A stretch of DNA of 64,000 nt from positions 4,704,001 through 4,768,000 of the forward strand of contig OY762209.1 of the NCBI GenBank assembly GCA_963665295.1, in the 5' to 3' direction. The stretch's first letter is position 1. Every line of letters starts with the position of its first letter. Below the pieces are notes generated by a model. That model was not told the origin of the DNA. It saw only the letters and a program-made list of their open reading frames with translations, and searched no databases. The position numbers were made by a program, and so were the translations under genes. Of this stretch, positions 12,212 through 35,478 are shown piece by piece. Origin of the DNA: Syntrophorhabdaceae bacterium (GTDB lineage: Bacteria > Desulfobacterota > Syntrophorhabdia > Syntrophorhabdales > Syntrophorhabdaceae).

Positions 12212-12237
12212 AGACGGTTTAAAAAGAAATATTTTCT
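12212..12237 (-). promoter_or_regulatory. ECF-type promoter motif copy upstream of moeA
   Basis: AGAA-N16-CCGTCT-TATGATA; the overlapping TATGAT could instead be a sigma70 -10. Confidence 0.5.
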
Positions 12238-12470
12238 TCGTTTTGGTCGCTTATTAGTTCTATTTGTCACAAACATAGGTCATAATACCCTTTTTTTGCC
12301 TCATGGTCATCGGGTTCAATCTTTGATATGTGAAAATATGCACAGCCTGTTTTGGCAAAAGTCACATAATAACCGATTCACGATTGAACGAACCATTATG
12401 GCCGATGCAATGGGTAAAAAAACCGTTAAAAGAGAATGGCAGGTCTAGGCCGCGCACAGGGCCTTGTGCC

Positions 12471-12515
12471 CGACTTTTTTGTCGCACCTCCCTTCCCGGA
12501 ACGACAAAAATGTGG
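12471..12515. promoter_or_regulatory. tandem palindromes, putative enhancer-binding protein sites
   Basis: CGAC-TTTTTT-GTCG (12471-12484) and CGAC-AAAAAT-GTGG (12502-12515), 31 bp apart, upstream of a sigma54 site. Confidence 0.5.
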
Positions 12516-12577
12516 GCGCCTCAAGGCGGCCACTTTTGTTTACCGCATTATTTCAATGTCTTACATGGCAGATCGAG

Positions 12578-12593
12578 AGGCACGGATATTGCT
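12578..12593 (+). promoter_or_regulatory. sigma54 (-24/-12) promoter
   Basis: aGGCACG-GATA-TTGCT. Confidence 0.7.
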
Positions 12594-12657
12594 TTTATAA
12601 TCCATGAGGCCTGAAGGCAACAGGAACATGGGCCACAACATTGGAATGGAGGGATTT

Positions 12658-12792
12658 ATGAAGAGACTTATCCTGGCACTTATTGCGCTCACCCTGTTCA
12701 CGGGATGCGCGGTTGTTCCCCTCGGCCATTATAGAGGACACGGGCCATCATACCATCATTACAACTCGCACGGCTACCACCGTGGCTACTGA
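12658..12792 (+). CDS. small His/Tyr/Gly-rich lipoprotein (44 aa)
   Basis: GGAGG RBS; MKRLILALIALTLFTG-C lipobox; mature part HYRGHGPSYHHYNSHGYHRGY. Confidence 0.7.
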   Translation: MKRLILALIALTLFTGCAVVPLGHYRGHGPSYHHYNSHGYHRGY

Positions 12793-13054
12793 TGTGGGGG
12801 ATCGACCGGCATAGCGCCTGCAAACGCCTGCCGGTCCCATGTCTCCTTATTCCTTTTTCCCGTACATCGACAATTGACGATCACCGGGGATTGTTCAAAA
12901 TGCCAGGATAACTAAAATGTGAGGAAAGGGCCCGGGATTGGGCCTGTTACGCCCTACCTGCTATCCAAGAAGGCGGGTAGCTTCTGCGGGGCCACAAACA
13001 ACCTCGTAATGGATGGATGCGAAGGTCAGGACCCGGATCGATCTGCCCCATATA

Positions 13055-14668
13055 TTACAGGCTTGCATAGATCTTCAACTGCTGCCGCGGATAAATCTGT
13101 GCCTTTTCAATGTTGTTCCACCTCATCACGTCCTTCGGGTATACATTGAACTTGTCCGATATCCCCGCCAGACTGTCACCTTTCTTTACCATGTATATAA
13201 GGGGCTTCTTCGCCTGAGTCCGGTAGACCGTGAGCGTCCGGCCTTCTCTTATGTCCAGTCCGTTCTTCAACCCGTTTCCTGCAATCACGTCCTTGGGCCT
13301 AACCCTGAAGCTCTGGCATATCTCCGTTATCGTATCCCCTTTCTTCACCTTGTAGACTACCGTATCCATAGCAACGGGCGGATATACCTTCAGTTTCTGC
13401 CCCAACACGACCCTCTGGTCCTTCATTTTGTTCCACTTCCTGATATCGTCCTTATCCACCTGGAACATGTCCGCCACCGTGGAAAGGCTATTGTTCTTCT
13501 TAACAACATAGATGAGGGGTTTTACCTCGGGCGTCTTTGTTCTTGCCGACGCCGCCACGCCTTTTCCTTTACTCACACCCTTGTGGACCGCTTCCGGAGA
13601 CCGGCGAGGCTCCCCCGCCCCCATGTCAGGCTCCGGCGACCTGTAACCGGCGAAAGCGGCGCTGATCTCAAGGATTTCATTTTGGTTTTCAAACCTTCGG
13701 AACCCGAACACCTCGGGATTGCTCCCAATCACTGCGGCAGCGATGACCTTGGGAGGATATTCCCTCGTTTCCTTTGCAAGACAGGTGCGAATGTGCCAGA
13801 AAGTTCTTTCTTCCATGGGATTGTCTATCCGTTTGAGGCACGATATGATCCTCCCTTCGCCGCAGTTATAGGCGGCGAGAGCAAGAAGAAAAGACCTCGG
13901 ACCGAAGATGGCGATCAGGTCGTGAAAGTATTCGACAGCGGCAAAGGTTGATTTTACCGGGTCCAGCCTGTCGTCAACACGGTCGGACACGCGAAGCGAA
14001 TACCTTTTGGCCGTACCCGACATGAACTGCCACATACCTACGGCCCCTGCATGGCTGCGGGCATTGGGGTTGAAACCCGATTCAAGGAACGCGATAAATG
14101 CCATGTCTTCCGGTATGTTCCTCTTTTTGAAGACCTCCTTCACGGCAGGCATATATCCTGCCGACCTTCTAAGGGAACTGTTCATGAACCGCCTGTACTG
14201 GTCGTTCGTCTGAAAGGCCTTCACGTAGAGCTTCACCTCGTTGAGAAAAACCGTTTCCACTTTATCGTCCTTTTCTCCGAACTCGCCGAGAAGCCGCTTA
14301 AGTTCCCGCTCAATCAGAGCGTCATGGCCCACCGTGGTGGCCCTGCCCAGGGAGCGTTCGTCAATCTGAATGCGGGGAAGGTCCCGGAAAGGGATATTGT
14401 CTTCCCTGCCGGCGAGGCCCGTCTGACTGCTCTTCCCATTGGCCACAGTCCTTTCCCCGGCAGGGCGGGCCATATCTTCCACACTGATCCTGTTCTCGCC
14501 CTGGCCGGAAGATACGGGACCCTTCAGTGCGTCTTCATGGGCCGACGCGACGGGCGCCTCACGCCTCCCCTGAACGCCGCTTACATAGGACATGGAGGTG
14601 CATGAGGCGCAGAGAACCACGAGTACTGCCGCGAAAGACAGCGTAATCACCTGTTTTGTTTTTTTCAT
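13055..14668 (-). CDS. mltD: MltD-like lytic transglycosylase lipoprotein with 3 LysM domains
   Basis: Lipobox LCASC; SLT motifs ESGFNP, AVGMWQFM, AAYNCG; YxVKKGD LysM repeats; start re-placed at ATG 14668. Confidence 0.88.
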   Translation of the reverse strand: MKKTKQVITLSFAAVLVVLCASCTSMSYVSGVQGRREAPVASAHEDALKGPVSSGQGENRISVEDMARPAGERTVANGKSSQTGLAGREDNIPFRDLPRIQIDERSLGRATTVGHDALIERELKRLLGEFGEKDDKVETVFLNEVKLYVKAFQTNDQYRRFMNSSLRRSAGYMPAVKEVFKKRNIPEDMAFIAFLESGFNPNARSHAGAVGMWQFMSGTAKRYSLRVSDRVDDRLDPVKSTFAAVEYFHDLIAIFGPRSFLLALAAYNCGEGRIISCLKRIDNPMEERTFWHIRTCLAKETREYPPKVIAAAVIGSNPEVFGFRRFENQNEILEISAAFAGYRSPEPDMGAGEPRRSPEAVHKGVSKGKGVAASARTKTPEVKPLIYVVKKNNSLSTVADMFQVDKDDIRKWNKMKDQRVVLGQKLKVYPPVAMDTVVYKVKKGDTITEICQSFRVRPKDVIAGNGLKNGLDIREGRTLTVYRTQAKKPLIYMVKKGDSLAGISDKFNVYPKDVMRWNNIEKAQIYPRQQLKIYASL

Positions 14669-14736
14669 CCGGACCTCCCGCCCGGTCGTTTTCTCCCGCG
14701 AGGGGGTGCAATTCGGCATATCGGGCTATATAATAA

Positions 14737-14761
14737 AGACGGATGTGGACACCGTTTTTCT
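14737..14761 (-). promoter_or_regulatory. ECF-type promoter motif upstream of mltD
   Basis: AGAA-N15-CCGTCT-TTATTATA. Confidence 0.75.
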
Positions 14762-14781
14762 CACTCCCTTCCCCGGCTGGC

Positions 14782-17927: not shown

Positions 17928-17953
17928 TGCTCTCCTTATTGTTTTATATAGGT

Positions 17954-17978
17954 AGACGGATAAACCCCGAAAACTTCT
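17954..17978 (-). promoter_or_regulatory. ECF-type promoter motif upstream of rodA-pbpA
   Basis: AGAA-N15-CCGTCT-ACCTATATA. Confidence 0.72.
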
Positions 17979-20823: not shown

Positions 20824-20826
20824 GGC

Positions 20827-21228
20827 CTAGTTGCTCTCCACTTTCATGGAATAGTCGCAAAACCCTATTTCGTCCCCCGGCATGAGTTCAAATTCCGGGG
20901 AGGTCATCCTCCGGTTCTTCGTCACCGGTTGCCCTGAAAGACTCCTGAAGAAGAGTGTGTTCGTTGCGAGGAGTTCGCCCGCCACTACAGGTATTCCCGC
21001 GCCTTCGAGAAGGATGTCACACTCGTTGCCCCTGCCGATGCGGTACCGGCCCTTCCCTACAGGTATTCTCCGGAACAATACCCCGCCTTTCCGGACGCTC
21101 AGGAAAAGTTCTGCCCTTTTTAACGGCGAAGGCCTTCGCACCGAACCGGCGAAGAGCAGGAGGGCAACAAAACCCAGGGACGATGAAAACACCAGGTTGA
21201 GAAGCATTATCTCCTTCGGGGAAAACAT
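20827..21228 (-). CDS. membrane-anchored FHA protein (FhaB-like), degenerate FHA
   Basis: N-terminal TM followed by IGRGNECDI; SxxH motif absent. Confidence 0.75.
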   Translation of the reverse strand: MFSPKEIMLLNLVFSSSLGFVALLLFAGSVRRPSPLKRAELFLSVRKGGVLFRRIPVGKGRYRIGRGNECDILLEGAGIPVVAGELLATNTLFFRSLSGQPVTKNRRMTSPEFELMPGDEIGFCDYSMKVESN

Positions 21229-21229: not shown

Positions 21230-22075
21230 TTACGCCACCCTGAGAAGCGTCTTTCCGGCTCTTATGGTATCCCCCTTGGTCAAAGATGCCTCGGCTATTT
21301 CTATATCATTGAGAAAGGTCTTGTTCTTCCCGCCAAGGTCGCGGATCTTCGCGAGGTCCTTGGCTACCACAACCTTGAAGTGTTTCCGCGAGATAAACTC
21401 CTCCGGGTCATTGAGGAGGACATCCGCGTCTCTGGCCCTTCCAAATACATATTCCCCTTCTTTCAGTGCCAGTTTTATCCCTTTATCCTGACCTTCTATC
21501 ACCTCGAGGTTGACGACTGGAATTTCAAGGCATTTCGTGACCCGCTCCTCCCTGGCGACAGTCTCTCTTTCCTCGATCACCTTGGTCCCCTTACCCGCAA
21601 ACATGCCGGGGATAGGCTCCTTGTCTTTCGGTTCCGTGACCTTGTGAGGTGTGGAAAAAATACCCATGGGGGCCCCCGGTTCGGGGAGCTTGAACAGGTC
21701 GGCCGGGCTCTCTTTCACTTCGAGAAAGGAGGATTTGATGACGAGCTGGTTCCTGAGAAGGCTTTCGTCCTTCCGTATATCGATATAGAGAGACGGGGAG
21801 AGGATGGTGTACTTCTTCTTTTTGATCCTGTCCAGCACCTTGTGTTTCAGCTGTTCCCCCGCGTGGGCAAGAAAGGGTGATATGTCTTCGTAATCAAAAG
21901 GGTTGAGGTAGAGCGTATACCGGTTGGGCACCAGAAACTTGCGGTCAAATCCGCCCATCTTTCTGTCTTCCATGCTCCTAAGGAGCCTGTCCAGTATGTC
22001 TCTTGGTTGAAGGTCTTTCTGCTTTGCGCCGAAGAGGCGGGCAAGCGCTTTCTTGATGCTCCTCATTAAACTCAT
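21230..22075 (-). CDS. FhaA-like protein (DUF3662 + FHA)
   Basis: QPRDI...VPNRYTLYLNPFD N-domain; FGR, SRKH FHA motifs. Confidence 0.88.
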   Translation of the reverse strand: MSLMRSIKKALARLFGAKQKDLQPRDILDRLLRSMEDRKMGGFDRKFLVPNRYTLYLNPFDYEDISPFLAHAGEQLKHKVLDRIKKKKYTILSPSLYIDIRKDESLLRNQLVIKSSFLEVKESPADLFKLPEPGAPMGIFSTPHKVTEPKDKEPIPGMFAGKGTKVIEERETVAREERVTKCLEIPVVNLEVIEGQDKGIKLALKEGEYVFGRARDADVLLNDPEEFISRKHFKVVVAKDLAKIRDLGGKNKTFLNDIEIAEASLTKGDTIRAGKTLLRVA

Positions 22076-22115: not shown

Positions 22116-22140
22116 AGACGGAAGGAGGACCGGCTTTTCT
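22116..22140 (-). promoter_or_regulatory. ECF-type promoter motif upstream of fhaA
   Basis: AGAA-N15-CCGTCT-TATATAA. Confidence 0.78.
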
Positions 22141-22202: not shown

Positions 22203-22631
22203 CTACTTCTCCGGGTCGTCGGCCCCCTCTTTCTTGCTTTTGCCTTTCTTCGGTCTCGTAATGTCTCTCGGGACGGCCGCGTATGCCATGGGGGTGGGGG
22301 TGGATTCGCCGGAGGCGCTCCCCGTCTTCCTTGCGGGCCGCTCCAGGGGTCTTATCTTTCTGTCTCCGGCCCCTTCGCCTCCGGCTTCCCTGAGCATTTC
22401 CTCGATGCCCGGAGGCAGGTGGCGAACCTTCTTTTCGTCGAAAGATTTCATGTGCTCGTCAAGGCTTTCGAGGAGCCTCTTTCCTTCCCTGTAGCCGGGG
22501 AGCACTTTTCGATACACCGCCAGTTCGCGAATCGCCTCGCTGCATTCCCTGCAGGCGCCTATATGCATCTTTGCTTCCTCGCCGGCATTTCCTTCGAGGA
22601 ATCTCAAGAGGTCTTCATCATTACATTTCAT
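22203..22631 (-). CDS. soluble zinc-binding anti-sigma factor (ZAS)
   Basis: MKC...HIGACREC (HxxxCxxC); no TM; directly after the sigma gene. Confidence 0.78.
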   Translation of the reverse strand: MKCNDEDLLRFLEGNAGEEAKMHIGACRECSEAIRELAVYRKVLPGYREGKRLLESLDEHMKSFDEKKVRHLPPGIEEMLREAGGEGAGDRKIRPLERPARKTGSASGESTPTPMAYAAVPRDITRPKKGKSKKEGADDPEK

Positions 22632-23268: not shown

Positions 23269-24087
23269 CTAAAATATTCTGTCTCCCTGCCGGGAGTTCT
23301 CCATAATCTTCTTCCTCGCCCATTTCTCCATGTCGCCCTGAATGAGGTCGTAGTCCAGGCAAAGTTCGAAAAGGGCGTCCCTCATCTCCCGTTTGCCCGC
23401 TTCCCTCAGGAGGGCATTTACTTTCTCCCACCCGTAGAGGGGACTATTTACCATGCATTCCACTACGCATGCCGCCTCGGCATAGGCGAGCCTTCTCCCC
23501 GCTTCCGTCTCCATGACCAGATTCCCCGGCCTTTCAAGCTCTTCGAGGAGAAGAACCGGCCCCCTCTCCCCCATCGCCTCCCGAAGGGCATCGAGATAGG
23601 AGTCGGGAAGCTCCTGGGAAAGATAGACGCTTAAACCTTCGTCCAGCCAGAACGGGCAGCGGCCCCGTCCTATTTCGTGGACCGCGAGGTGTATGATTTC
23701 GTGGGTGAGGTAGATGTAAAACGACTGTGTTTCTTCCTCGTCGTCCTCCTCCGATACGATAGTTATCTCCCCGTCAAAGAAACCCGCCGCCCACGAACCG
23801 CAGGCGTTCTTGCGATCGCCTTCACGGAGCGCCTCTTCGCCGGACCGGTAGACGTTTACCCTGATATCGGTAAGTTCGTGTCCGAGTTTGTCGCGTACTA
23901 TCTTCTGCGTCCTCTTTATCGTCCGGAACAGGTTGATAATATCGAGTTTCTCGTGCTTCAAATGAAAATTGACCCTTATTCCGTGCTGGGTCAACCGCAC
24001 AAGGTCGTCTTCTCCGATATAGGTAGACCTGTTTTCCTGACGGACGATCGATTTGACTTTTCTGAAGATTCTTTCCTCTTCGTCCAT
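23269..24087 (-). CDS. peptidase MA-like zincin, cytoplasmic
   Basis: HEIIH...PFWLDEGL gluzincin motif; no signal peptide. Confidence 0.8.
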   Translation of the reverse strand: MDEEERIFRKVKSIVRQENRSTYIGEDDLVRLTQHGIRVNFHLKHEKLDIINLFRTIKRTQKIVRDKLGHELTDIRVNVYRSGEEALREGDRKNACGSWAAGFFDGEITIVSEEDDEEETQSFYIYLTHEIIHLAVHEIGRGRCPFWLDEGLSVYLSQELPDSYLDALREAMGERGPVLLLEELERPGNLVMETEAGRRLAYAEAACVVECMVNSPLYGWEKVNALLREAGKREMRDALFELCLDYDLIQGDMEKWARKKIMENSRQGDRIF

Positions 24088-24161
24088 TACATATCTCCGT
24101 GTTTCACCTGCAAGACCCTGTCATCCGGCACCTCACGCCGGACTTACCCCACGTCCCACGG

Positions 24162-25373
24162 TCAGCCGAATAATCCCCGCTTAACCTCACTTATGTCTTT
24201 GAAGCGCTTTTCTCTTTCCTTTTCGATGCACCTGCCTATCACCCGACTCATGGTCTCCGGAAAAGGGGCGACCATTTCGCGCGTTATCCCGTCGCCTTCT
24301 ACCCTGCCCCCCAGCATTTCGTAGAATACGACACCCAGAGAGTAAATATCGTCCCTCTCGTCCACATCATTGAAGTCCTCCCGCTGCTGTGGCGACGTAT
24401 AGGGTACATTATAGCCCCGGAAGCCGGGGGGCGGCATAAAACCGCCGGTCTTGTCCAGTGCCAGCCCGAAGTCTATGATTTTCAGGCCTACGGGCGAAGA
24501 TGAATGGTCGACCATGATATTCCTCGGGTTGATGTCCCTGTGTATCACGCGCTCCTTGTGGATGTATTCGAGGGCGCTCAATATAAGACGGGCCGTTTCC
24601 CTGAACCGGCCAATGCCGTAAGGCGTTTTCCGGATCACATCATAGAGGGACCCGCCCTCGATATACTCGAGCACGATGTAATAGTCGCCATCTGCGACGC
24701 CGTAATCGAACCCCTTTACCACGTTCGGGTGGTCGAACCTTTCCGTGAGGAGCTTTCCCTCGTTCCGGAAGAGGGCGGTCAACGTCTTCGCTGTCGCATA
24801 CCGCTCGAGCTTTTCGAGCATGAGGTACTTGAAGGCCACCGGCCTGCTGTCCGAGCGCCTCATCCCCTTCAGTATCCGCGCCATCCCGCCCTTGCCTATC
24901 TCCATATCAAAGACCACATATTTCTCGTCGAAGGCACCGGGTTTCTCTTTGGACTTATCGTAGACGGTCCTTAACCGCCCGATCGCTTCATAAAGCTTCA
25001 CCTCTTCCCCGGGGGTCAGCTTCGGGTCGTAATACGCGGTAGGATCATGGTCAAGAAGCTTTCTGAACCCGAGCTTATTCGTAACCCGCCGGAGCTTGTT
25101 GCGGACCGACTGATCCTTTTCGCCGCGCCAGAGGTCCTTTACTAAAATCTCATCCACTTCTTTCCCATCATCGATGAGTTTAAGGAGGTGGACTGCCGCG
25201 TCCTCGCGCAGTTCGGGGTCGGCATTGGTCCTTATGATCTCGTAGCAGGCCTCGGGTAACGCGGCCACGGGGACGACCGACGCCGATGCAACTACCCGCT
25301 CAGCCGGGTCAAGGAGTTTCGTTTCGTTCTCCCCCGCAACCCTGTCCTTTTCCCTGAAAGATCCTTCTGTCAC
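24162..25373 (-). CDS. soluble Ser/Thr protein kinase with N-terminal helical domain
   Basis: GKGGMA, VAFK, HRDINPRN, DFG, DIYSLG. Confidence 0.88.
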   Translation of the reverse strand: MTEGSFREKDRVAGENETKLLDPAERVVASASVVPVAALPEACYEIIRTNADPELREDAAVHLLKLIDDGKEVDEILVKDLWRGEKDQSVRNKLRRVTNKLGFRKLLDHDPTAYYDPKLTPGEEVKLYEAIGRLRTVYDKSKEKPGAFDEKYVVFDMEIGKGGMARILKGMRRSDSRPVAFKYLMLEKLERYATAKTLTALFRNEGKLLTERFDHPNVVKGFDYGVADGDYYIVLEYIEGGSLYDVIRKTPYGIGRFRETARLILSALEYIHKERVIHRDINPRNIMVDHSSSPVGLKIIDFGLALDKTGGFMPPPGFRGYNVPYTSPQQREDFNDVDERDDIYSLGVVFYEMLGGRVEGDGITREMVAPFPETMSRVIGRCIEKEREKRFKDISEVKRGLFG

Positions 25374-25389
25374 GCCCGTCTCTCCACGC

Positions 25390-26733
25390 TCAATTCTGCT
25401 CCATTACCCTGCCCGAGCATTTCGGGCACCTGTACATGGCTGCCCGGTCCCCGGCTTTTACGCTGAAGGCGGTATTGCAGCCTGGATTCACGCACCTGAG
25501 TGTCACGAAATCATCGTCCCGGCTTTCCTCCGCCGCGTCCCTTTTTCCGGGCGACGAAGGCTCCCCGTAGATGGTCCCCGCTTCCGGCGCGGCCTGCCCC
25601 GTCGGGACTCCTGTAGCCCTCGGGAGGCCGGCTTCAATCTCCTTTTCTCTGAGTCTCATTTCGAGTTGTTCTTTTTCCCTGAAGAGCTCGTTCTCAATGG
25701 CGTCCCGGTCCTTTTTCTTCTTGAGCTCGATTAAAGCCCCCATGGCCTTCAGGTTGCTTTCCTCTTTGAGACCGGTCATTTCTATCTCCGCAAGGTTTTT
25801 CACCTTTTGATCGGCTATTTCGTTTTCGAGACGCAACCTCTCTATCCCCGCCTCCACCTCGATCACCGCGTACCTCGCTTCCGCGACCTCACGGTCAATC
25901 CCCGCCTTTCCCAGGAGCTTCCTCCGTTCGTAGTCAAGTTCCTGGTCAAGCTCCAGTTTGCGGATTATCCAATCCCTTTTCGTCTTGCGGTCCATGTCCC
26001 GCTCTTCGAGGGCCGCTTTCAGGTCTTCAAGTTCCCGGCTTCTGAGGAGCTTCGCCTTTTCCTCTTCGAGGAGGTACTCCTCGATCTTATCGTCGGACAG
26101 AGACAGGTCTCCGAGGAGAGAAAGGGTCTTACGTCTCATGAGAATCCTTTTCTCAAGCTCCTTCGCTTCCACCTCGTCCATCTCGTTGCGGATGAACCCC
26201 TTTTCCTCCGCATCGATCACACCGGAATAATTCCTGAAGTCGTACTCCACCGACTTCAACTCGTTAAGGTAAAGCCCCGCTGCGTCGAGGGTATTCTTCA
26301 GGTAATGTTCCACCCGCACCTCGAATTCCTTCCTCAGCCCGGAGCCGGCGCCATCACTCTCAAGCTCTTTTATGGATCTCTTGCCCAGCATGTCGCGAAA
26401 TGCATTGTACACCCCTTCCCGGAGGAAATCATGCAACTCATTCGTCCCCGGGGCGTCCTCCCCGTGTGCGACATGCTCGAGGAACCGGTCCCGTTTCACG
26501 ACAAGAACCACAATGCGGACGGTTACATCTATCTTTACCGGGTCCACGGTGCGCACATCTTCGAGGTGAAACGTAAGGGGTATGAGTTCTCCCGCGTATT
26601 CCTCCCCGGCGACAAAGTCCTCCCTCACCAGTCCTACATCGACACGGAGTACGGACCGGCAGTTGCTGCAATACCGCGCTTCCCGGTCTACCTTCACCCC
26701 GCACCGGGGGCAACGTTCCGCCTCTTCTCTCAT
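25390..26733 (-). CDS. Zn-ribbon + SPFH/Band7-like + long coiled-coil + C-terminal Zn-ribbon protein
   Basis: CPRC..CSNC at N-terminus, SPFH-like middle, E/K/R-rich coil, CVNPGC..CPKC at C-terminus; start re-placed at ATG 26733. Confidence 0.7.
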   Translation of the reverse strand: MREEAERCPRCGVKVDREARYCSNCRSVLRVDVGLVREDFVAGEEYAGELIPLTFHLEDVRTVDPVKIDVTVRIVVLVVKRDRFLEHVAHGEDAPGTNELHDFLREGVYNAFRDMLGKRSIKELESDGAGSGLRKEFEVRVEHYLKNTLDAAGLYLNELKSVEYDFRNYSGVIDAEEKGFIRNEMDEVEAKELEKRILMRRKTLSLLGDLSLSDDKIEEYLLEEEKAKLLRSRELEDLKAALEERDMDRKTKRDWIIRKLELDQELDYERRKLLGKAGIDREVAEARYAVIEVEAGIERLRLENEIADQKVKNLAEIEMTGLKEESNLKAMGALIELKKKKDRDAIENELFREKEQLEMRLREKEIEAGLPRATGVPTGQAAPEAGTIYGEPSSPGKRDAAEESRDDDFVTLRCVNPGCNTAFSVKAGDRAAMYRCPKCSGRVMEQN

Positions 26734-26810
26734 GTTCTCACGTTCCGTGCAAAACGGGGCATTTCCCTCTGTCCACGACACCTCTCCAGCCCATGGCATT
26801 TCATCTACTC

Positions 26811-27809
26811 CTAATATTGTACTCTTCTCAGCTTCAAGTCGCCATCCACTTTTAGTACTCCTGCCCTTAAAGCGCCTATTTCCGGGCCCACATCGTCCGG
26901 ACAGGGCGATGATGCCATGCGGCAAATCCTTTCGGACAAACGCTCCAGGTCTTCCAGCTTCCAGAATATTTCCATGTCAAAACACACGGCGCCGGAAGAC
27001 CCGCGCCGACTGTCCAAACCCGCGCCGCCGGGGGGAGCCTTCGCCACGGAACGCTTCATTTCCATGAGGTTTCTCTCTATGTCCTTAAGCTCCACCGCGA
27101 CCCTGGTCTGTCCCGTTTCCACGAGCCTCGATTTCGCCTCCGACACGTGAACAATGATCTTGTCGATCTCTCCTGTCACACCTTTCCTGTTACCCCCGAC
27201 TCCTTCGAAAATCCTCGCCCCTCCGCTTCGTCTTCCACGCTTCAAATTAAGGAAAAGGAGGAGACAGAGGACAAGGAGAAGCGCCGCGGCCGGTATGCCC
27301 CAGATCACATACTTTCTCAAGGGCGATACAGCAGAGACCTCGAAATCCCGGGACAGGACTATTTCACCTTTTTCCACGTCCACAAGCTTTACATGAGCCT
27401 TTACATGGTATGACATAAACCCCGCCCGGGAGCGGTATACGTCACCCGTGAGAAATCCCTGGACCCCTTTCAGCCTTCCGTGCCGGACCCTCGTATTTCC
27501 GTCCATAATGTCCTTGAGCTGAAGACCCTGCTCCGCGAGGACCCTGTCAAAGTCCGCCCGCTCCATGACCTTGCAGGATGTCCTTTCTTTAATGGCGGAT
27601 ACTATCCCGTTCTTCACCATATTGTTGTCGCCCTTGAAATCGAGTACTGCCATGCGGCTCATCTTCCTGTCAACAGGCAATGCCTTCACCACTGCTTCCT
27701 GAAGGCTGTTCATGGCCTGTGACTGGAGGGTCTCCGCAAGACAGGAGGAATACCAGATAAAGGCCATAACCGCGCCCGCGAGAATGCCTATAACCGCGTG
27801 TCTTCTCAT
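26811..27809 (-). CDS. CsgG/HfaB-like domain protein with internal TM and C-terminal helical domain
   Basis: Signal peptide; MAVLDF, VMERADFDRVLAEQGL, KLVDVEKGEIV; TM WGIPAAALLLVLCLLLFL. Confidence 0.75.
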   Translation of the reverse strand: MRRHAVIGILAGAVMAFIWYSSCLAETLQSQAMNSLQEAVVKALPVDRKMSRMAVLDFKGDNNMVKNGIVSAIKERTSCKVMERADFDRVLAEQGLQLKDIMDGNTRVRHGRLKGVQGFLTGDVYRSRAGFMSYHVKAHVKLVDVEKGEIVLSRDFEVSAVSPLRKYVIWGIPAAALLLVLCLLLFLNLKRGRRSGGARIFEGVGGNRKGVTGEIDKIIVHVSEAKSRLVETGQTRVAVELKDIERNLMEMKRSVAKAPPGGAGLDSRRGSSGAVCFDMEIFWKLEDLERLSERICRMASSPCPDDVGPEIGALRAGVLKVDGDLKLRRVQY

Positions 27810-27941
27810 GTCAACACCCTCCCGGACCATATGACGGGTCTTCGCCGCAAATCCGCCATAGAATTAGATGATAAGTAAAACGGAATACAAAAACAATCAA
27901 ATACGAAAAACCGTTGCTCTGCCCCGCACAAAGGTATGTAT

Positions 27942-28874
27942 TCATTTTTTCTTCTGCCCTCCCGAAAGGGATTTCATCGTTTTCGACGCGAGGATTGCCG
28001 ACGCCTTTCCTATGGCGTCCGTTCCTGATTTCTTCTCGTTGCTCCCGAAACCCAGCACATCCCTTACCGCGAACGATCCCGCCCCTCCACGAGCTTTATA
28101 CACGCGGATTGTCCCTTCGGCCCGCGAGGAATATATCTGTCTCGTCTCCTCGCTGAACACGGCTCCTACCCTTCCTTCAACTACGGCGCTTACGAGAAAA
28201 TAGACGAGAAACCGGTCCACAGCCTCGGCATCGCCGGAATGGAGAGCAGGCAGAACACCTCCCGAATGGCCGTCGGTCAACGCTCCCGGATCCACCCTCC
28301 CGTATCCCTTCTTGATTGCCAGGGATGCAAGGTGACGGTCCAGGGTTCGGCTGTCGGATGGTTTCCCGTCCCACCTGTCCGACGTAATTATGATCACCCG
28401 TTTTGCGAGAGGAAGTCCCCTGATAAGAATGTCCTCCGCACGGTCCCTTGCGAGCTTTGTCTTCATAAAGACCGTATACAGGTCCGGTTCGGGCTGCTGT
28501 TCGCCCGTTATCTCTGTTTCCGTGAGAATAGAACCCTTTTTCGGTATGAGGATCCTGAGAACCGTTTCCTTTTCCCGGGAGAGCACCACCGGATGAATCA
28601 ACGGTCGTACCGCTTCGATAAGGGCATTCCGTTGTGCATCTTCCACGGCTCTCACCCGCGCATGGGGTCCGTTTTCCCCCTGCCTCACCCGCGCTTTCCC
28701 TTCGACGGTGACCGTTTCAGGAACCAGATGGGAACCTCCGGGACTCTGAACAAAAACCTCTTGCCCGACGTTCGCCCGGCACAGGGCAAAATAACCGGTA
28801 CACAGGAATAAGGCCACCGTCAGAATAACCCGGAACCTCAATCCCTTACTTCTTGATTTCTCGTCCATGCTCAC
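27942..28874 (-). CDS. exported protein with FlgT-N/LPP20-like domain
   Basis: Signal/TM; VTVEGKA...RAVEDAQRNAL. Confidence 0.6.
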   Translation of the reverse strand: MSMDEKSRSKGLRFRVILTVALFLCTGYFALCRANVGQEVFVQSPGGSHLVPETVTVEGKARVRQGENGPHARVRAVEDAQRNALIEAVRPLIHPVVLSREKETVLRILIPKKGSILTETEITGEQQPEPDLYTVFMKTKLARDRAEDILIRGLPLAKRVIIITSDRWDGKPSDSRTLDRHLASLAIKKGYGRVDPGALTDGHSGGVLPALHSGDAEAVDRFLVYFLVSAVVEGRVGAVFSEETRQIYSSRAEGTIRVYKARGGAGSFAVRDVLGFGSNEKKSGTDAIGKASAILASKTMKSLSGGQKKK

Positions 28875-28966: not shown

Positions 28967-28991
28967 AGACGGTTTAGTCCCCTGTTTTTCT
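28967..28991 (-). promoter_or_regulatory. ECF-type promoter motif upstream of the operon that contains the ECF sigma
   Basis: AGAA-N15-CCGTCT-TCTCATTAA. Confidence 0.72.
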
Positions 28992-29343: not shown

Positions 29344-29718
29344 CTATCCCCCGGAAAGCATCGTGAAACGCGGAGCCTCCAGCATCTCAATCTCTTCCAT
29401 GCCTTTCTCCTGTTTCTGGCGGAGAAGAGAAACCAGCATACCGTAGCTCGTAATCTGCCAACCGTTGATCACCCTCCACACTTCGGGGTTATTCCAATCC
29501 CACGATTTTGTGTCCCCGATCTCCACAACCCTGGTTTGTTTTGTCTCGCCATCGAGCACCCTTAACCTGATGCTGAGGTCCGCAATCCCCGAGATCCCAC
29601 TCTCCGCGCCTTTACCGTCCACCACCGTGGACACCATCCTGAGGTCGTCGCCCTCATCCGCGCCTTTCACACCGAAGAAACTGTCTTTTGTCTCCGCCAC
29701 GTAGATCCTCCGTTTCAT
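29344..29718 (-). CDS. hypothetical protein ending in Gly-Gly; possible divergent MoaD/ThiS/ubiquitin-like carrier
   Basis: C-terminus INGWQI...EEIEMLEAPRFTMLSGG*; directly downstream of moeB; start uncertain. Confidence 0.6.
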   Translation of the reverse strand: MKRRIYVAETKDSFFGVKGADEGDDLRMVSTVVDGKGAESGISGIADLSIRLRVLDGETKQTRVVEIGDTKSWDWNNPEVWRVINGWQITSYGMLVSLLRQKQEKGMEEIEMLEAPRFTMLSGG

Positions 29719-29803
29719 TAATGGGGCCTGCGACAACCCGTGCCGTCGGCAAGACCGGCAAACCCTTTTTCTTTTCCACCGGCTTGCGCCGTTTTCTTCC
29801 TGG

Positions 29804-30955
29804 TCAGCCCTTTTGACATTCACCGCCGCCCGCGTCCGCGAGTCCGGTTATCTCGGGTTTTGTCCCGCAGAGGGGACAGGCCGGGTTCTTCCCGGTTTCT
29901 ATAATCCTCACCGTGAGGTTAAGGGCGTTATATACGTAGAACTTTCCTATCATCAACGTTCCCGTTTCAAGGATTATCTTTATTACCTCCGTGGCCTGAA
30001 CCAGGCCGATCTGTCCGGGGACAACCCCAAGGACCCCTGCCTCGCTTCAGGTAGGCGCGAGGTGACGGGGAGGAGGCTTGGGGAACAGGCACCTCAGGCA
30101 CGGCCCTTCCTTTTGCGGCCAGAATACGCCTGCCTGCCCGTCAAACCCTACAGCCCCACCGAAAACGAAGGGCTTGCCCGCAAAGTAACACGCGTCATTG
30201 AGGAGGAACTTCGTGTCCAGACTGTCCGTCGCGTCCATGACAACATCGAATTTATTCATGATTTCGAGGGCGTTCTCCCGAGTAAGACGTTCCCTGAAGG
30301 GGATGACTTTTACGTCGGGATTAATCCGCTCCATTGCATCCTTCGCGGAGTCCACTTTGAGCCTGCCCACATCGCCTGATCCGTGGATTACCTGCCTGTT
30401 GAGGTTCGAGAGGTCCACCCTGTCGAAATCGACTATGCCTATAGTCCCCACGCCGCACGCGGCAAGATAGAGCAGGGCCGAGGACGCAAGGCCACCCGCG
30501 CCCACTACAAGGACTTTGGCATTCCAGAGTTTCAACTGGCCTTCTTCACCGACCTCCTTAAGGAGCATGTTCCTGCTGTAGCGGTTGAGTTGGTGGACAT
30601 TGAATCGGCTGTCCGATACAATCTCACCGCCGCCGCCCAGCCACGCATCATAGCCTCCGGCGAGGGAGCGGGCGTTGCCGAAGCCCATCTTTCTCAGTTT
30701 CTCCGCGGCAAGAATCGAACGGTCGCCTACAGCGCAATACACCACGATGGGTACGCTCCTGTCGCCCGACAGCTTGTTCGACTCTCCTTCGATGAGGCCG
30801 GGGGCCACAAAACGGGCGCCTTTGATATAGCCCAGGTAAATCTCCCTGCTTCCTCTGATGTCTATGGGTATCACCCGTTCATCCGAATTAAAAAGGTCCA
30901 TCGCCTCTTCAACGGAAATCTCAAGATCGGGTATGGTGGTTTCGGACTTATCCAT
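29804..30955 (-). CDS. moeB: rhodanese-MoeB/ThiF adenylyltransferase, selenoprotein (U303), 383 aa
   Basis: Rhodanese YCAVGDRS; GAGGL, SNLNRQ, CLRC; TGA 30047-30049 reads into SEAGVLGVVPG..QATE..CPLCG, the conserved MoeB C-terminus. Confidence 0.9.
30013..30034 (-). promoter_or_regulatory. putative SECIS hairpin of moeB
   Basis: GUCC-UU-GGGG-UUGU-CCCC-GGAC starting 12 nt after the UGA. Confidence 0.55.
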
Positions 30956-31170
30956 AGTTCACACCTCGTCCAAGGCAGCACCCCGACCCGGCTGCCTTCA
31001 TAGTTCCGGCTCCGCGGGCTCCCCTCGGGAATGTATATTTTTATCCTCTTGGTGCGGGCAGAGAGGCGAAGCGGTCGGCAGTTGCCTCAATGTGATGTTC
31101 TCCGATCCGCTGAATTGCGAGGATACTGTCAGGACCTCCTGAAGAATGATATGGCCCCAAGGCCGTAATC

Positions 31171-31199
31171 TTTATACCAGTTTCACGGGTCACTGTCAA
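31171..31199 (-). promoter_or_regulatory. sigma70 promoter for moeB
   Basis: TTGACA-17 nt-TATAAA. Confidence 0.65.
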
Positions 31200-31225
31200 C
31201 TAATACTATGGCGCCACTATACTAT

Positions 31226-31603
31226 TCAAATGGACGGCACGAGCCATTCTCTGGCCCTCCGGGTATTATCAAAAGCCTTTACCTGGAAGCCTCTGTTTAT
31301 GCATACCGTTTCGTAGAATTGAAAATCGCCGTAATCTTCCTTCAGACCCGACGCAACCACTGCGATCATCATGGTTGCGGGAATGCCCAGGGATTCATAA
31401 AGCTTTGGCAGACCATATATATCCACCAGATTGACCGCGGGCTCCAGTTGACCGATCTCGACAAGGGCCTTGCAGGATTCATGACTCTTGATTAAGCGAC
31501 TTCCTTCGATGGTGGCAGTCTCCACATCGTCAATAGTTATCTTTCCGTGGCACTTCAGGAGTATCATCTTCTCCTCACGGGAATAGTCAACTTCAATAGG
31601 CAT
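31226..31603 (-). CDS. STAS/SpoIIAA-like hypothetical protein
   Basis: FYETVCINRGFQVKAF...AREWL C-terminus; TTGACA-18-TATCAT upstream. Confidence 0.7.
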   Translation of the reverse strand: MPIEVDYSREEKMILLKCHGKITIDDVETATIEGSRLIKSHESCKALVEIGQLEPAVNLVDIYGLPKLYESLGIPATMMIAVVASGLKEDYGDFQFYETVCINRGFQVKAFDNTRRAREWLVPSI

Positions 31604-31697
31604 TACCGTCCCCCTCAGGTTTCAAACGTTTCGGCTTGAGACAATTTTTGTGTGCGAAGAATGAATGATAACAGGTAAAAACGGGTTATGTCAATTG

Positions 31698-33395: not shown

Positions 33396-33445
33396 TCTAT
33401 CTCCTGCAAGGTGTGATTTCTTACGATTATACCACACACTGCCCC

Positions 33446-34228
33446 TTATTTATCTCCACCTCGGTGAAGAATGATTCCACTCCCGCTCCTCCGCCACGAA
33501 GGCACCTTTCCGTTTATGAGCGGCAGACTTGATGCGGACTCCGTGCCGGCAGGGTTAATCAGGCGAAACGTGATGCCCACACTGCCCAGGAAGATTTTAT
33601 CGCCGTCACCGAGCACGGCCTTCCGGACCCTTTTCAGGTTTACCCGCGTTCCGTTGGTGCTCGACAGGTCTTCCAGAGTGACCCTCCCATATTCGACACG
33701 CAGTCGTGCGTGGCTGTCCGAAACCGTGTCATCCCATATCCTTATGTCGCACTCTTCCCCCCTCCCCATGAGGGCCCCTTTGTCCGTCAGAGGATAGACT
33801 CTTTCACCCTCCACAAGCTCCGCAACGGGGGTATCGCACTCTTCGCCTTTCACGGCCTTACCTCCCTCTCCATCGGGCATGGACGGCCCGGTATCGCGGG
33901 CCTCCCCGGATATCCTTTTTCCGATCACTTGATACGACACCCGGACAAGAAAGCCCTTCTTCTGGGTATCTCCCTTCTCGAACAGGACCTGTATCCCCCC
34001 ATCGCTTTGGTACCCCTTGTCCTGAATCCACGCATCTATCGATTCACCAAGCATCCTGCCCAGAGTATGGAGGAGGTCCCCATACTCGTCATACACGGAC
34101 TCATCCATCACCACCGTGTACGTGGGGGGGACAAGTTTGGTCCCGATAAAGTTGAGTTTGTTCTTTTCTATAGTCCTTCTGAGGCTGAGTTCAATCTCCA
34201 CCGGGTCAAGATTATAGCCCTTTTCCAT
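33446..34228 (-). CDS. second FhaA-like protein (DUF3662 + FHA)
   Basis: DPVEI...VPPTYTVVM; MGR..VSDSH..STNGTRVN; start re-placed at ATG 34228. Confidence 0.85.
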   Translation of the reverse strand: MEKGYNLDPVEIELSLRRTIEKNKLNFIGTKLVPPTYTVVMDESVYDEYGDLLHTLGRMLGESIDAWIQDKGYQSDGGIQVLFEKGDTQKKGFLVRVSYQVIGKRISGEARDTGPSMPDGEGGKAVKGEECDTPVAELVEGERVYPLTDKGALMGRGEECDIRIWDDTVSDSHARLRVEYGRVTLEDLSSTNGTRVNLKRVRKAVLGDGDKIFLGSVGITFRLINPAGTESASSLPLINGKVPSWRRSGSGIILHRGGDK

Positions 34229-34263
34229 GAGACCCCCTGTATACCCATCTATCCATATATTAA

Positions 34264-34289
34264 AGACGGGAATTCGGATCGTTTTTTCT
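34264..34289 (-). promoter_or_regulatory. ECF-type promoter motif upstream of the second FHA operon
   Basis: AGAA-N16-CCGTCT-TTAATATAT. Confidence 0.72.
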
Positions 34290-34380
34290 TTTTTTTCTGA
34301 AAAAATAAATAACCCTTTCCCACGGGCTCTTGATGAACGATCGCGGCAGAAACCGGGACCCCGGGAACGGTATATGCCTT

Positions 34381-34421
34381 GAAAGAATAAGGGCAAGAGG
34401 ACGACGCTTTTCCTCTTGCCC
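34381..34421 (-). terminator. Rho-independent terminator
   Basis: 11-bp stem GGGCAAGAGGA/TCCTCTTGCCC followed on the minus strand by TTATTCTTTC. Confidence 0.7.
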
Positions 34422-34500
34422 GAATGTCGGCGATCATGTTTTTCTGCCTTACCGGCAGGCCCTGCGTATAAAAGACCCGACCTCCCTGAAGCCGGCAGTC

Positions 34501-35310
34501 CTATCTCCCGTGTCCTCCGCCCCCTCCTCCTTCATGCTGACCCTGAGGCTGCATGTGTTGACCTTGGGGCTGCATGTGTTGACCTTGAGGTTGCATGTGC
34601 TGACCTTGAGGTTGCATGTGCTGACCTTGGGGCTGCTTGTGTTGACCTTGAGGTTGCATATGCTGGCCTTGAGGCTGCATATGCTGACCCTGAGGCTGCA
34701 TGTGCTGACCCTGGGGCTGTATGTGCTGACCCTGCGGGCCTCGTGGAGGCTGTCCCGGCGGCTGATGCCGCTGAACCTCCGGCCTCTGCCGATATTGCTC
34801 TTGTCTTTGATGCCTTAACTCCTGTCTCTGGGCTTGCGGTCGGGGACGATACCCCTCGACGCCCCAGGTCCTCTGTCTCTCCCAATGCCGGTTATTATGC
34901 CAAGTCCTCCAGTTGCGCTGAAGGTGCCCGTAAGGAATCCGTTCATACTGCCACCGGTGCCCATACCAGTCATGATTTCTGTAGTATCCTCTCCATCCCG
35001 GGTCCACATCATAATAGAAGCTTGGGACATTGCGGTAGTAAGCCCAGCCCCGGTCATAGTAGCGGGAGCGATACCAACGCCCCTCCCACGGACGCCACCA
35101 AAAACCATTCCAGAAGAACAGATCTACGTCCACGTCCGGAACAACATAAACATCAGGCGTATCCGGCATGACTATCACTTCCGGAGGCGCCGCGAACGCC
35201 ACAGGCGGCGGTAAGCCTACATTGACGCTCACGCTGACCTGCGCTCCCGCCGGAATGGAAAGACCGATCCCCAGCGCAAGCACCATCATTCCCAAAAATA
35301 GTCTTTTCAT
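34501..35310 (-). CDS. secreted Trp/Tyr/Arg-rich (YXWGXW-like) protein with QPQGQHM repeat tail
   Basis: Signal peptide ending AGA-Q; VSVSVNVGLPPP; aromatic-rich core; 10 heptads; AAGGAGG RBS. Confidence 0.85.
   Translation of the reverse strand: MKRLFLGMMVLALGIGLSIPAGAQVSVSVNVGLPPPVAFAAPPEVIVMPDTPDVYVVPDVDVDLFFWNGFWWRPWEGRWYRSRYYDRGWAYYRNVPSFYYDVDPGWRGYYRNHDWYGHRWQYERIPYGHLQRNWRTWHNNRHWERQRTWGVEGYRPRPQAQRQELRHQRQEQYRQRPEVQRHQPPGQPPRGPQGQHIQPQGQHMQPQGQHMQPQGQHMQPQGQHKQPQGQHMQPQGQHMQPQGQHMQPQGQHMQPQGQHEGGGGGGHGR
34531..34740. repeat. 21-bp coding tandem repeat x10
   Basis: Units such as catgtgctgaccttgaggttg encode QPQGQH(M/I/K/E). Confidence 0.92.
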
Positions 35311-35453
35311 ATTGTTGCCTCCTTATTGTCCTCACTCCAGCCGGATACACAGCAACACGCGTGGTTTCTCCGACGCATACCCGCCTGTTCCCAATGTAAC
35401 GCATCATCGGCAAAGGTGTCAACGCCGAATGAGACCGGCCCCTTATTATATGC

Positions 35454-35478
35454 AGACGCCAATGGACCTCCGTTTTCT
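35454..35478 (-). promoter_or_regulatory. ECF-type promoter motif (variant) upstream of the repeat protein
   Basis: AGAA-N15-GCGTCT-GCATATAAT. Confidence 0.6.

Follow-up and report, generated by a model that had tools for sequence, protein, structure and literature searches.

A clustered bipartite motif in a kinase, FHA and cell-wall gene locus of a Syntrophorhabdaceae bacterium: candidate promoters for a locally encoded ECF-type sigma factor

The locus described here lies within a 64-kb window, the whole stretch of DNA that was analysed, and combines genes for cell-wall synthesis and Ser/Thr phosphorylation with a gene for an ECF-type sigma factor (Table 1). The gene calls of an earlier note, made from the sequence alone, were correct when compared with Pfam profiles. 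Both kinases are encoded by the only two Pkinase genes of the genome, and the locus rodA is one of two SEDS genes, the other of which adjoins a PBP gene at 3.33 Mb. Actinobacteria possess a cluster with the order fhaA-fhaB-pstP-rodA-pbpA-pknA-pknB. The present locus resembles it by having, side by side, a protein with FhaA_N and FHA domains, a small membrane FHA-like protein, a PP2C phosphatase, a Hanks kinase, a SEDS RodA and a class B PBP. It differs with respect to its host, a member of the Syntrophorhabdaceae, its gene order, and the presence of a candidate ECF-type promoter motif before each of its units. The locus kinase also differs in that it contains TPR repeats, with no PASTA domain reported by Pfam.

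Table 1. Motif sites and genes of the locus, in order of position within the window.
Feature	Position	Strand	Remarks
Site 1	12212..12237	-	AGAA-N16-CCGTCT; about 40 nt before moeA; lineage-specific member
mltD-like lytic transglycosylase with LysM domains	13055-14668	-	Pfam
Site 2	14737..14761	-	68 nt before the mltD start (14668), which is preceded by a Shine-Dalgarno sequence
Class B PBP (pbp2)	14782-16551	-	Pfam
rodA	16548-17927	-	Pfam
Site 3	17954..17978	-	26 nt before the rodA start (17927); heads rodA-pbp2
Hanks kinase with TPR repeats	18058-20010	-	Pfam
PP2C phosphatase	20029-20823	-	Pfam
133-aa membrane protein, weak FHA match	20827-21228	-	Pfam
fhaA	21230-22075	-	Pfam
Eighth exact match	21791..21816	-	Inside the fhaA frame; chance or lineage-specific internal promoter
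Site 4	22116..22140	-	40 nt before the fhaA start (22075); heads fhaA / 133-aa FHA-like / PP2C / kinase-TPR
142-aa protein, position +1 of sigma	22203..22631	-	Conserved C/HxxxCxxC signature
ECF-type sigma factor, 193 aa	22643..23224	-	TIGR02937, Pfam Sigma70_r2
Peptidase-MA-like protein	23269-24087	-	Pfam, translation
Hanks kinase of the sigma operon	24162-25373	-	Pfam, translation
Zinc-ribbon coiled-coil protein	25390-26925	-	Pfam, translation
CsgG/LpoB-like lipoprotein	26811-27830	-	Pfam, translation
310-aa secreted protein, first gene of the sigma operon	27942-28868	-	Translation
Site 5	28967..28991	-	98 nt before ATG 28868; heads a seven-gene run ending in sigma and likely anti-sigma
Inserted block, outside the candidate regulon	29344..31603	-	159-aa gene, ThiF-rhodanese gene, 125-aa SpoIIAA-like gene
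Second FHA operon, 579-aa protein with two FHA domains	31698-33437	-	Pfam; G001 ortholog
Second FHA operon, FhaA-like gene	33446-34228	-	Pfam; G001 ortholog
Site 6	34264..34289	-	N16 spacer; 35 nt before the FhaA-like start (34228); heads the second FHA operon
Site 7	35454..35478	-	GCGTCT; 143 nt before a 269-aa secreted protein with 9 QPQGQH repeats

The assignment of the sigma factor, already proposed in the earlier note, is upheld by a match to the NCBIfam sigma70-ECF profile TIGR02937, which scores 60.5 bits where the cut-off is 42.9 and covers positions 6-162 of the 165 in the profile. ECF (group 4) factors have regions 2 and 4 but neither 1.1 nor 3, in a length of about 200 aa; the present protein has 193 aa. 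Pfam recognizes region 2 (Sigma70_r2, 29.4 bits) but does not report region 4; Sigma70_r4 was matched only in the ortholog from the related genome G022, at 22.8 bits and under the cut-off of 24.1. The genome contains 13 matches to the sigma70-ECF profile above its cut-off, one of which is inside the locus. The clade of this sigma factor is small and rare: at E ≤ 1e-30, 11 representatives were counted out of 1.84 billion. The closest solved structure was found with a best PDB E-value of 8e-4. An acidic EEVED stretch is present, which we take to be region 2.2.

The gene in position +1 encodes a 142-aa protein and adjoins the sigma gene in all four genomes that have both, namely that of the window (G000), G001, G003 and G022. 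Residues C3, H23, C27 and C30 are invariant in the four orthologs, as is an A-x-P-x-D-x-T motif in the C-terminal tail (A119, P121, D123, T125). Zinc-binding anti-sigma (ZAS) factors are recognized by HxxxCxxC and an upstream Cys or His ligand in an N-terminal domain, encoded by a gene that adjoins the sigma gene. This signature is found in the 142-aa protein; the zf-HC2 profile (PF13490) was not matched at E ≤ 1, nor was any other Pfam or NCBIfam family, and an Atlas lead (score 0.92) pointed to a cluster whose members have zf-HC2 in 27% of cases. From its four conserved residues and its position, the protein is likely a soluble, ZAS-type anti-sigma factor.

A pattern search of the window with AGAA-N{15,16}-SCGTCT returned eight matches, all on the minus strand, which is the coding strand of the locus genes. 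Seven are intergenic and fall precisely where the earlier note had placed them; the eighth, within the fhaA reading frame, was absent from its list. In 100 dinucleotide-preserving shuffles of the window, a comparison that the note had proposed, the mean was 0.50 matches and the maximum 5, with none of the shuffles reaching 8. The whole genome (5,508,164 bases) has 54 matches compared to approximately 40 expected from base composition, and a single 50-kb bin has 8 while every other bin has 2 or fewer. If matches were as dense as elsewhere in the genome, the 23,267-base span would contain 0.195 of them, which gives a Poisson probability of 4.4e-11 for 8 or more. If a TAT within 8 nt of CGTCT is added to the pattern, 7 of 16 genome-wide matches are in the locus. 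The motif is real, largely confined to the 23-kb locus and co-oriented with its genes. With 54 matches across the genome, 8 of them in this one span, the motif is not a housekeeping promoter.

Other aspects of the earlier description were also borne out. An A+T-rich tract lies 3' of every site (for example TATATAA or TTATTATATA), and the spacers differ in sequence while being 15 or 16 nt in length. Start codons had been placed 25-145 nt past the motif; the six distances measured from CGTCT are 26-143 nt, each to a start preceded by a Shine-Dalgarno sequence. The moeA start, read by eye, is about 38-47 nt past CGTCT and has no clear Shine-Dalgarno sequence. The moeA site is among the best-scoring, and a weak sigma-70-like match (12310-12282) lies just upstream of it. 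Site 5 precedes a co-directional run from 28868 to 22203, making it a candidate target promoter before the sigma factor's own operon. The syntenic contig of G001 encodes no homolog of the 269-aa repeat protein downstream of site 7, and the two paralogs of this protein elsewhere in the genome have no motif in roughly 260 nt of upstream sequence read by eye. The match inside fhaA is followed 123 nt downstream by an in-frame ATG with a Shine-Dalgarno sequence, and no CGTCT is present at the corresponding place in G001.

The earlier note had united about 22 kb as one system. This stretch is not uniform: the block between the sigma operon and the second FHA operon has no counterpart of its genes on the syntenic G001 contig and two of its three genes have their own canonical promoters of the TTGACA-N17/18-TATAAA/TATCAT type (31171-31199 and 31665-31694). 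From these, the housekeeping promoter of the organism appears to be canonical, unlike the motif.

The motif was compared in three other genomes (G001, G003 and G022) that belong to one family and are thus kin rather than independent samples, together with G002, which lacks the sigma factor. In the congener G001, whose sigma factor is 74% identical, AGAA-N16-CGTCT and the A+T tract are kept in all four shared intergenic regions, that is, before rodA, fhaA, the sigma operon and the second FHA operon. The intergenic alignments are 26-47% identical overall and the motif blocks stand out as conserved islands. The mltD ortholog of G001, which is unlinked and found on another contig, also retains the motif upstream. 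Retention at orthologous loci, a check named in the earlier note, was thus observed for these five but failed for moeA, as the G001 ortholog has no motif upstream.

The sigma orthologs of G003 and G022 are reciprocal best hits with 28-30% identity. In these genomes, a variant motif, GCATAAA-N15/16-(C)GTCY, occurs in non-coding DNA before orthologous genes. In G003, it precedes the sigma gene, the first gene of the homologous operon, 102aa-rodA-pbp2, an FhaA-like gene and an SLT (mltD-like) gene; in G022, it precedes the sigma gene, 102aa-rodA and a 227-aa gene. Both FHA assignments are tentative; the 227-aa G022 protein appears FHA-like when its sequence is inspected by eye. Four sites, compared by eye, served to define the variant before the search, hence the invariance of GCATAAA is by construction. 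Its totals do not exceed those of a reversed-pattern control (11 against 8 in G003 and 11 against 12 in G022) and the argument rests on where the matches are located. Among the variant matches examined in G000, G001 and G002 (6 of 6, 6 of 8 and 5 of 5 listed, respectively), 16 of 17 are inside open frames of at least 250 aa. The upstream half of the motif therefore differs between the two sigma clades, AGAA in G000 and G001 versus GCATAAA in G003 and G022, and so does a helix (KT-YGNI--CL versus TISS-V-R) that is presumably the region 4.2 recognition helix. A candidate promoter is found directly before the sigma gene in G003 and G022, in contrast to G000. The genes upstream of sigma in its operon (23269..28868) have a homologous run in G003, and a Hanks kinase is encoded in the sigma operon of G000, G001 (by synteny) and G003. 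In G022, the motif is adjoined by the sigma/anti-sigma pair only, with no kinase, peptidase or lipoprotein genes beside it.

Taken together, the seven intergenic sites are probably promoters for RNA polymerase in complex with the ECF-type sigma factor of the locus, and site 5 is presumed to be the autoregulatory promoter of the sigma operon. That the motif would be the target of a locally encoded factor is suggested by its confinement to the locus, the site before the sigma operon, the islands in G001, the replacement of the upstream half where the sigma factor is only 30% identical, and the G022 arrangement. In the terms of the earlier note, a local ECF factor drives its own operon and the other motif-headed genes, and enrichment, conservation, covariation and geometry support this in silico. 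The usual −35 word of ECF promoters is GGAAC/AAC, from which AGAAAA or GCATAAA departs. The locus resembles autoregulated ECF (group 4) modules in its short sigma factor that passes the profile, a +1 gene with C...HxxxCxxC, and nearby targets. It also shares with them a bipartite, rigidly spaced motif upstream of its own operon, in which the −10 is of the CGTC type, and a promoter sequence that varies with the sigma clade. It differs from them in the distance of its sigma factor from solved ECFs, the small clade, and the location of the sigma gene at the end of a seven-gene operon. As outlined in PMC7826278, ECF factors usually control their own expression, and their promoter motifs vary by clade; the groups that it lists with a zinc-binding anti-sigma factor in position +1 include ECF11 (ChrR) and ECF14 (Casas-Pastor et al. 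2021).

It is unlikely that the motif is a genuine site for another sigma factor, a DNA-binding regulator or a locus protein without a recognizable DNA-binding domain, with the local ECF factor as a target only. The other sigma70-ECF matches in the genome would supply candidates, and the link between sigma and motif is drawn from sequence. Such a factor would have to act on a motif largely restricted to the locus that encodes this sigma, with a −35 half that changes along with a divergent sigma ortholog and, in G022, with no conserved neighbours other than sigma and anti-sigma. The scanned proteins of the locus gave no hit to any other DNA-binding domain. G002, which lacks this sigma factor, also gave no match to the locus rodA at E ≤ 1e-20.

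More improbable still is that the sites are sigma-70 promoters with a TATAAT-like −10 past CGTCT, where AGAA...CGTCT would be an activator or repressor site that overlaps the −35 region. Hexamers resembling TATGAT, TATATA, TATAAT or TATAAC do occur 0-4 nt past CGTCT at most sites in the window. A TTGACA-like −35 is missing at the right distance: of the seven intergenic spots, only the one near moeA gave a minus-strand match, a weak one, in a scan with the consensus TTGACA-N16-18-TATAAT. Nor does the motif look like the site of a dimeric regulator, being asymmetric and having a spacer fixed at 15/16 nt. In G003 and G022, the sigma start codon is 15-16 nt past GTCY and its Shine-Dalgarno sequence about 8 nt past, and at the G003 operon start TATATA abuts GGAGG. 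A −10 located past GTCT would place the RNA start inside or beyond the ribosome-binding site in these cases, so the A+T tract cannot be a TATAAT −10 and, judging from this spacing, GTCT must be the −10 element of the candidate promoters.

The reading of the matches as chance, or as remnants of a dispersed repeat or promoter duplication with no common regulator, was rejected: the match inside fhaA may well be chance and about 0.2 such matches are expected in the span, but the shuffles, the genome-wide clustering (P about 4e-11) and the two motif blocks that are conserved islands in G001 contradict it, and spacers and flanks share no sequence as copies of a repeat would.

If the sites are read by the local sigma factor, AGAAAA would be the −35 and CGTCT the −10, and RNA synthesis would begin within the A+T-rich tract, about 6-8 nt past CGTCT. 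The sigma factor would be kept inactive by the 142-aa protein by way of the zinc-bound HxxxCxxC domain of the latter. Once released, the sigma factor would raise the expression of its own seven-gene operon, a positive feedback, and would also switch on fhaA with the FHA-like, PP2C and kinase genes, rodA-pbp2, mltD, the second FHA operon and the secreted repeat protein. Such a regulon could serve as an accessory peptidoglycan-synthesis and Ser/Thr-phosphorylation module. As a guess, the releasing signal may be the state of the envelope, sensed via the lipoproteins and the kinase of the operon.

The kinase in the sigma operon of three genomes is reminiscent of kinase-associated ECF pairs such as EcfP/PknT and EcfK/PknS. 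In the case of EcfP, phosphorylation reportedly stands in for a missing charge of the sigma factor; here the acidic EEVED is present and phosphorylation need not replace it. The kinase-associated groups named in PMC7826278 are ECF43, ECF59-62, ECF217, ECF267 and ECF283, which are described there as typically without an anti-sigma factor. An ECF43-like, kinase-regulated group with a conserved kinase and no anti-sigma was considered and rejected, as the ZAS-like +1 partner is conserved in 4/4 genomes and the G022 ortholog has no adjoining kinase. A possible though doubtful extension is that the locus is a laterally mobile morphogenesis circuit in which phosphorylation of the anti-sigma tail by the Hanks kinases of the locus, together with binding of this tail by the FHA proteins, frees the sigma factor. 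The sigma factor would then drive a dedicated SEDS-bPBP synthase with its lytic transglycosylase, FhaA-type scaffolds, a PP2C and the only kinases of the genome. If true, this would amount to an ECF sigma factor under a partner switch of the phospho-threonine/FHA type, coupled to a cell-wall module of the actinobacterial kind although the lineage is a syntrophic deltaproteobacterial one.

The autoregulated ECF regulon is already known as a kind; it is the cargo that is unusual here, as it includes the only two Hanks kinases in the genome along with a PP2C, FhaA-type proteins and a SEDS-bPBP pair. Should the sigma factor read these sites, the locus would constitute a self-contained and self-activating cell-envelope gene circuit.

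A pattern search for AGAA-N15/16-(C/G)CGTCT returned eight matches in the 64-kb window, all eight on the minus strand, compared with a mean of 0.50 in 100 dinucleotide-preserving shuffles, none of which reached eight. Seven are the intergenic sites of the earlier note, each found at exactly the position that it had given. An A+T-rich tract follows every motif site, and start codons preceded by a Shine-Dalgarno sequence lie 26 to 143 nt downstream of CGTCT; the moeA start, placed by eye about 38–47 nt past CGTCT, has no clear Shine-Dalgarno. The gene names proposed earlier agree with the Pfam assignments, which include MoeA, a lytic transglycosylase (SLT+LysM), RodA, a class B PBP, FhaA (FhaA_N+FHA), PP2C, two Hanks kinases, a second FhaA-like protein and a two-FHA protein. 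The seven intergenic sites are quite probably promoters read by the local ECF-type sigma factor, a proposal of the earlier note that is supported in silico by enrichment, conservation and covariation.

The eighth exact match, absent from the earlier list, is intragenic, lying in fhaA, and has no counterpart in G001, a genome of the same genus. Elsewhere in the locus, one motif site precedes the gene of a secreted repeat protein with two paralogs in the source genome; the motif was not seen by eye in the approximately 260 nt upstream of either paralog.

Coordinates of the features discussed (window positions unless stated otherwise)
Feature	Position (strand)	Description
Small ORF	12658-12792 (+)	44 aa, unannotated-looking; lipoprotein-type signal (LFTGC), His/Tyr-rich tail; within the 880 nt that separate mltD from moeA
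Region syntenic with G001	14817-41167	Matched by a 24.4-kb G001 contig
In-frame ATG in fhaA	~21667	Codon 137, SD-preceded, 123 nt 3' of the eighth match; would give an FHA-domain-only product
Eighth exact match	21791-21816 (-)	Within fhaA
Anti-sigma-like gene	22203-22631 (-)	142 aa
Sigma gene	22643-23224	193 aa
Motif site of the sigma operon	28967-28991	Heads a seven-gene operon
Inserted block	29344-31603 (-)	159-aa gene, ThiF-rhodanese gene, SpoIIAA-like 125-aa gene
Canonical promoter	31171-31199	TTGACA-N17-TATAAA
Canonical promoter	31665-31694	TTGACA-N18-TATCAT
Repeat protein gene	34501-35310 (-)	269 aa, secreted; Trp/Arg/Tyr-rich middle part, 9 QPQGQH repeats
Paralogs of the repeat protein	near 5,039,336 and 339,720 (source genome)	
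Best candidate site outside the locus	1,634,358 (-) (source genome)	AGAA-N16-CGTCT and A+T tract
Neighborhood of the sigma/anti-sigma pair in relative G022	4573-8088 (-) (L007, contig C151 of G022)	The pair directly follows a TPR-CHAT protease-like gene (1171 aa) and a DUF4384 gene

The source genome is a single contig of 5,508,164 bases, window included, and contains 54 matches to the motif against approximately 40 expected from composition. Eight of these fall in one 50-kb bin while every other bin has at most two. The rest-of-genome rate predicts 0.195 matches for the 23,267 bases of the locus (P(>=8) = 4.4e-11). When TAT is required within 8 nt downstream of CGTCT, the locus accounts for 7 of the 16 genome-wide matches. 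Since the motif is rare genome-wide and clustered in the locus, it is not the general promoter of the organism. Weight-matrix and wider-pattern scans of the source genome found no convincing further site outside the locus; the matrix, which was trained on the sites it ranks and carries a one-base spacer offset, was used only for this absence. The best outside candidate precedes, by about 60 nt, a gene of 229 aa that reads as BON-domain-like. It may be a member of the regulon or may be due to chance, since the wider pattern has 70 matches outside the locus.

G001 encodes a sigma factor that is 74% identical to that of the window. All four shared spacers, upstream of rodA, fhaA, the sigma operon and the second FHA operon, keep AGAA-N16-CGTCT and the A+T tract. 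In spacer alignments that are only 26–47% identical overall, AAGAAAA and CGTCT(T)ATATA / CCGTCTTCTCA form conserved islands. The mltD ortholog is on a separate contig and retains the motif. The moeA ortholog has no motif upstream, with sigma-70-like hexamers there instead, and neither the inserted block nor the 269-aa repeat protein has a homolog on the syntenic G001 contig. Genome-wide, AGAA-N16/17-CGTCT is not enriched over a reversed control in the relatives (69 vs 93 in G001); there, the positions of the hits carry the information and whole-genome counts do not.

Two more distant relatives, G003 and G022, encode sigma factors 28–30% identical to that of the window, whose sole match in the source genome is this sigma gene, and both encode the same protein immediately after it. 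A homologous operon in G003 encodes a secreted protein, a CsgG/LpoB-like lipoprotein, an SPFH protein, two kinases, a peptidase-MA-like protein, the sigma factor and the anti-sigma; downstream of it lie a 102-aa gene, rodA and pbp2. The G022 pair has no kinase, peptidase or lipoprotein genes alongside. Spacers in both genomes carry GCATAAA-N15/16-(C)GTCY with an A+T tract. In G003, these variant sites lie upstream of the first gene of the operon, the sigma gene, the 102aa-rodA-pbp2 genes, two genes that are putatively FhaA-like and SLT (mltD-like), and genes for two small secreted proteins. The G022 sites precede the sigma gene, 102aa-rodA, a glycine-zipper lipoprotein and a 227-aa gene that looks FHA-like by eye.

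Because the variant motif was drawn up from four sites by eye before it served as a query, its invariance follows from how it was built. The totals for it do not exceed a reversed control (11 vs 8 in G003, 11 vs 12 in G022), and loose GCATAAA patterns show no genome-wide enrichment either. Among the matches listed for the variant pattern in the source genome, G001 and the congener G002, 16 of the 17 examined (6 of 6, 6 of 8 and 5 of 5, respectively) fall inside open frames of at least 250 aa. When the two motif classes are aligned on GTCT, an AAA about 20 nt upstream is common to both, and the bases just 5' of it are AGA in one and GCAT in the other. The putative recognition helix of the sigma factor, which we take to be that of region 4.2, differs in parallel between the two clades (KT-YGNI--CL vs TISS-V-R).

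The sigma-70 reading, in which the -10 element is a TATAAT-like hexamer after CGTCT, was considered because such a hexamer is frequently present there, but the more distant relatives speak against it. In G003 and G022, the start codon of the sigma gene lies 15–16 nt past GTCY and its Shine-Dalgarno begins about 8 nt past GTCY; at the start of the G003 operon, TATATA abuts GGAGG. A -10 placed after GTCT would therefore have the RNA begin within or beyond the ribosome-binding site, while CGTC as the -10, with a start 6–8 nt later, would yield complete leaders. Typical ECF promoters combine a CGT-rich -10 with a rigid spacer and a -35 that contains AAC; CGTC as the -10 fits this pattern, and AAC is absent from the -35 of this motif. 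Two genes of the inserted block, which sits between two motif-headed operons, have canonical promoters, and in six of the seven motif-bearing spacers a consensus scan turned up no sigma-70 match on the minus strand. The idea that the motif is a housekeeping promoter was rejected on these two results and the genome-wide counts.

The reader favored here, the local sigma factor, scores 60.5 bits with NCBIfam TIGR02937 (sigma70-ECF), above the cut-off of 42.9. Pfam reports region 2 and not region 4, and the protein is divergent, its closest solved structure having E = 8e-4. Of the 13 matches over the ECF-profile cut-off in the source genome, it is the sole one inside the locus. At E<=1e-30, a profile of its clade matched 11 representatives out of 1.84 billion, and at E<=1e-10 it matched 62; near relatives make up 14 clusters of 67–100% identity. 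Sigma homologs P0006, P0010, P0011 and P0013 sit on metagenome contigs of roughly 70 kb.

The gene directly after it encodes a protein with no family match. C3, H23, C27 and C30 are kept in all four orthologs, and C...HxxxCxxC is the signature of zinc-binding anti-sigma factors. No membrane segment was seen by eye, and the Atlas gives as a lead a cluster with zf-HC2 in 27% of its members. Judged from its sequence, this protein is likely the zinc-binding anti-sigma of the local sigma factor. In four orthologs, its C-terminal tail keeps an A-x-P-x-D-x-T pattern (A119, P121, D123, T125). The pattern is a candidate phospho-threonine site, and the locus is rich in kinases and FHA domains.

The sigma factor is present in 4 of 96 genomes of the class at E<=1e-12 and in 3 of 69 of the family at E<=1e-15, the source genome included in both counts. 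A scan of metagenome contigs yielded a single 1.6-kb locus at 25% identity; a genome-contig collection gave no match in a first scan and two loci only in a second. Because G002 has no match to the sigma factor (E<=1e-10) or to the rodA of the locus (E<=1e-20), the module looks accessory. The only two Pkinase genes of the source genome and both of its FhaA_N genes sit in the locus, as does one of its two SEDS genes, the other lying beside a PBP at 3.33 Mb. A tblastn search with the locus PP2C found no second copy in this genome, which has five moeA paralogs.

The gene set is similar to the actinobacterial cluster fhaA-fhaB-pstP-rodA-pbpA-pkn, here in a Syntrophorhabdaceae-type host. No comparable FhaA/ECF/RodA system was found in the literature searched, and searches on Syntrophorhabdus and sigma factors or on FhaA/ECF/RodA returned no description of cell-envelope regulation in this lineage of uncultured syntrophs. 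According to PMC7826278, ECFs usually autoregulate, and promoter motifs track ECF clades. The kinase-linked groups described there (ECF43, 59–62, 217, 267, 283) typically have no anti-sigma, and a kinase together with a ZAS-like anti-sigma is described as exceptional among such groups (PMC7826278); in contrast, the present locus has both a kinase and a ZAS-like anti-sigma. The part of its supplement examined has no FHA, Peptidase_MA or CsgG neighborhood, and its sole RodA neighborhood belongs to Bacillus ECF265 subgroups (PMC7826278). A new ECF group is not claimed, and a matching group may be found elsewhere in that supplement or in the ECF Hub.

The proposed circuit would work like other autoregulated ECF/anti-sigma modules. 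The anti-sigma would keep the sigma factor inactive until a signal sets it free. The freed sigma factor would boost its own operon and turn on the fhaA, FHA-like, PP2C and kinase genes, rodA-pbp2, mltD, the second FHA operon, the secreted repeat protein and, in this strain, one of the moeA paralogs. The cargo of this presumably autoregulated module is unusual: the circuit would couple the entire Hanks-kinase/PP2C/FHA apparatus of the organism, together with a lytic transglycosylase and a SEDS-bPBP peptidoglycan synthase, to an ECF sigma. The change from AGAAAA to GCATAAA would represent a natural specificity swap between two sigma clades, and a possible source of orthogonal sigma/promoter parts. 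The outcome is a complete predicted wiring diagram for an ECF-type sigma that is both rare and unstudied; it is composed of the sigma factor, its likely anti-sigma, a promoter word and seven target units.
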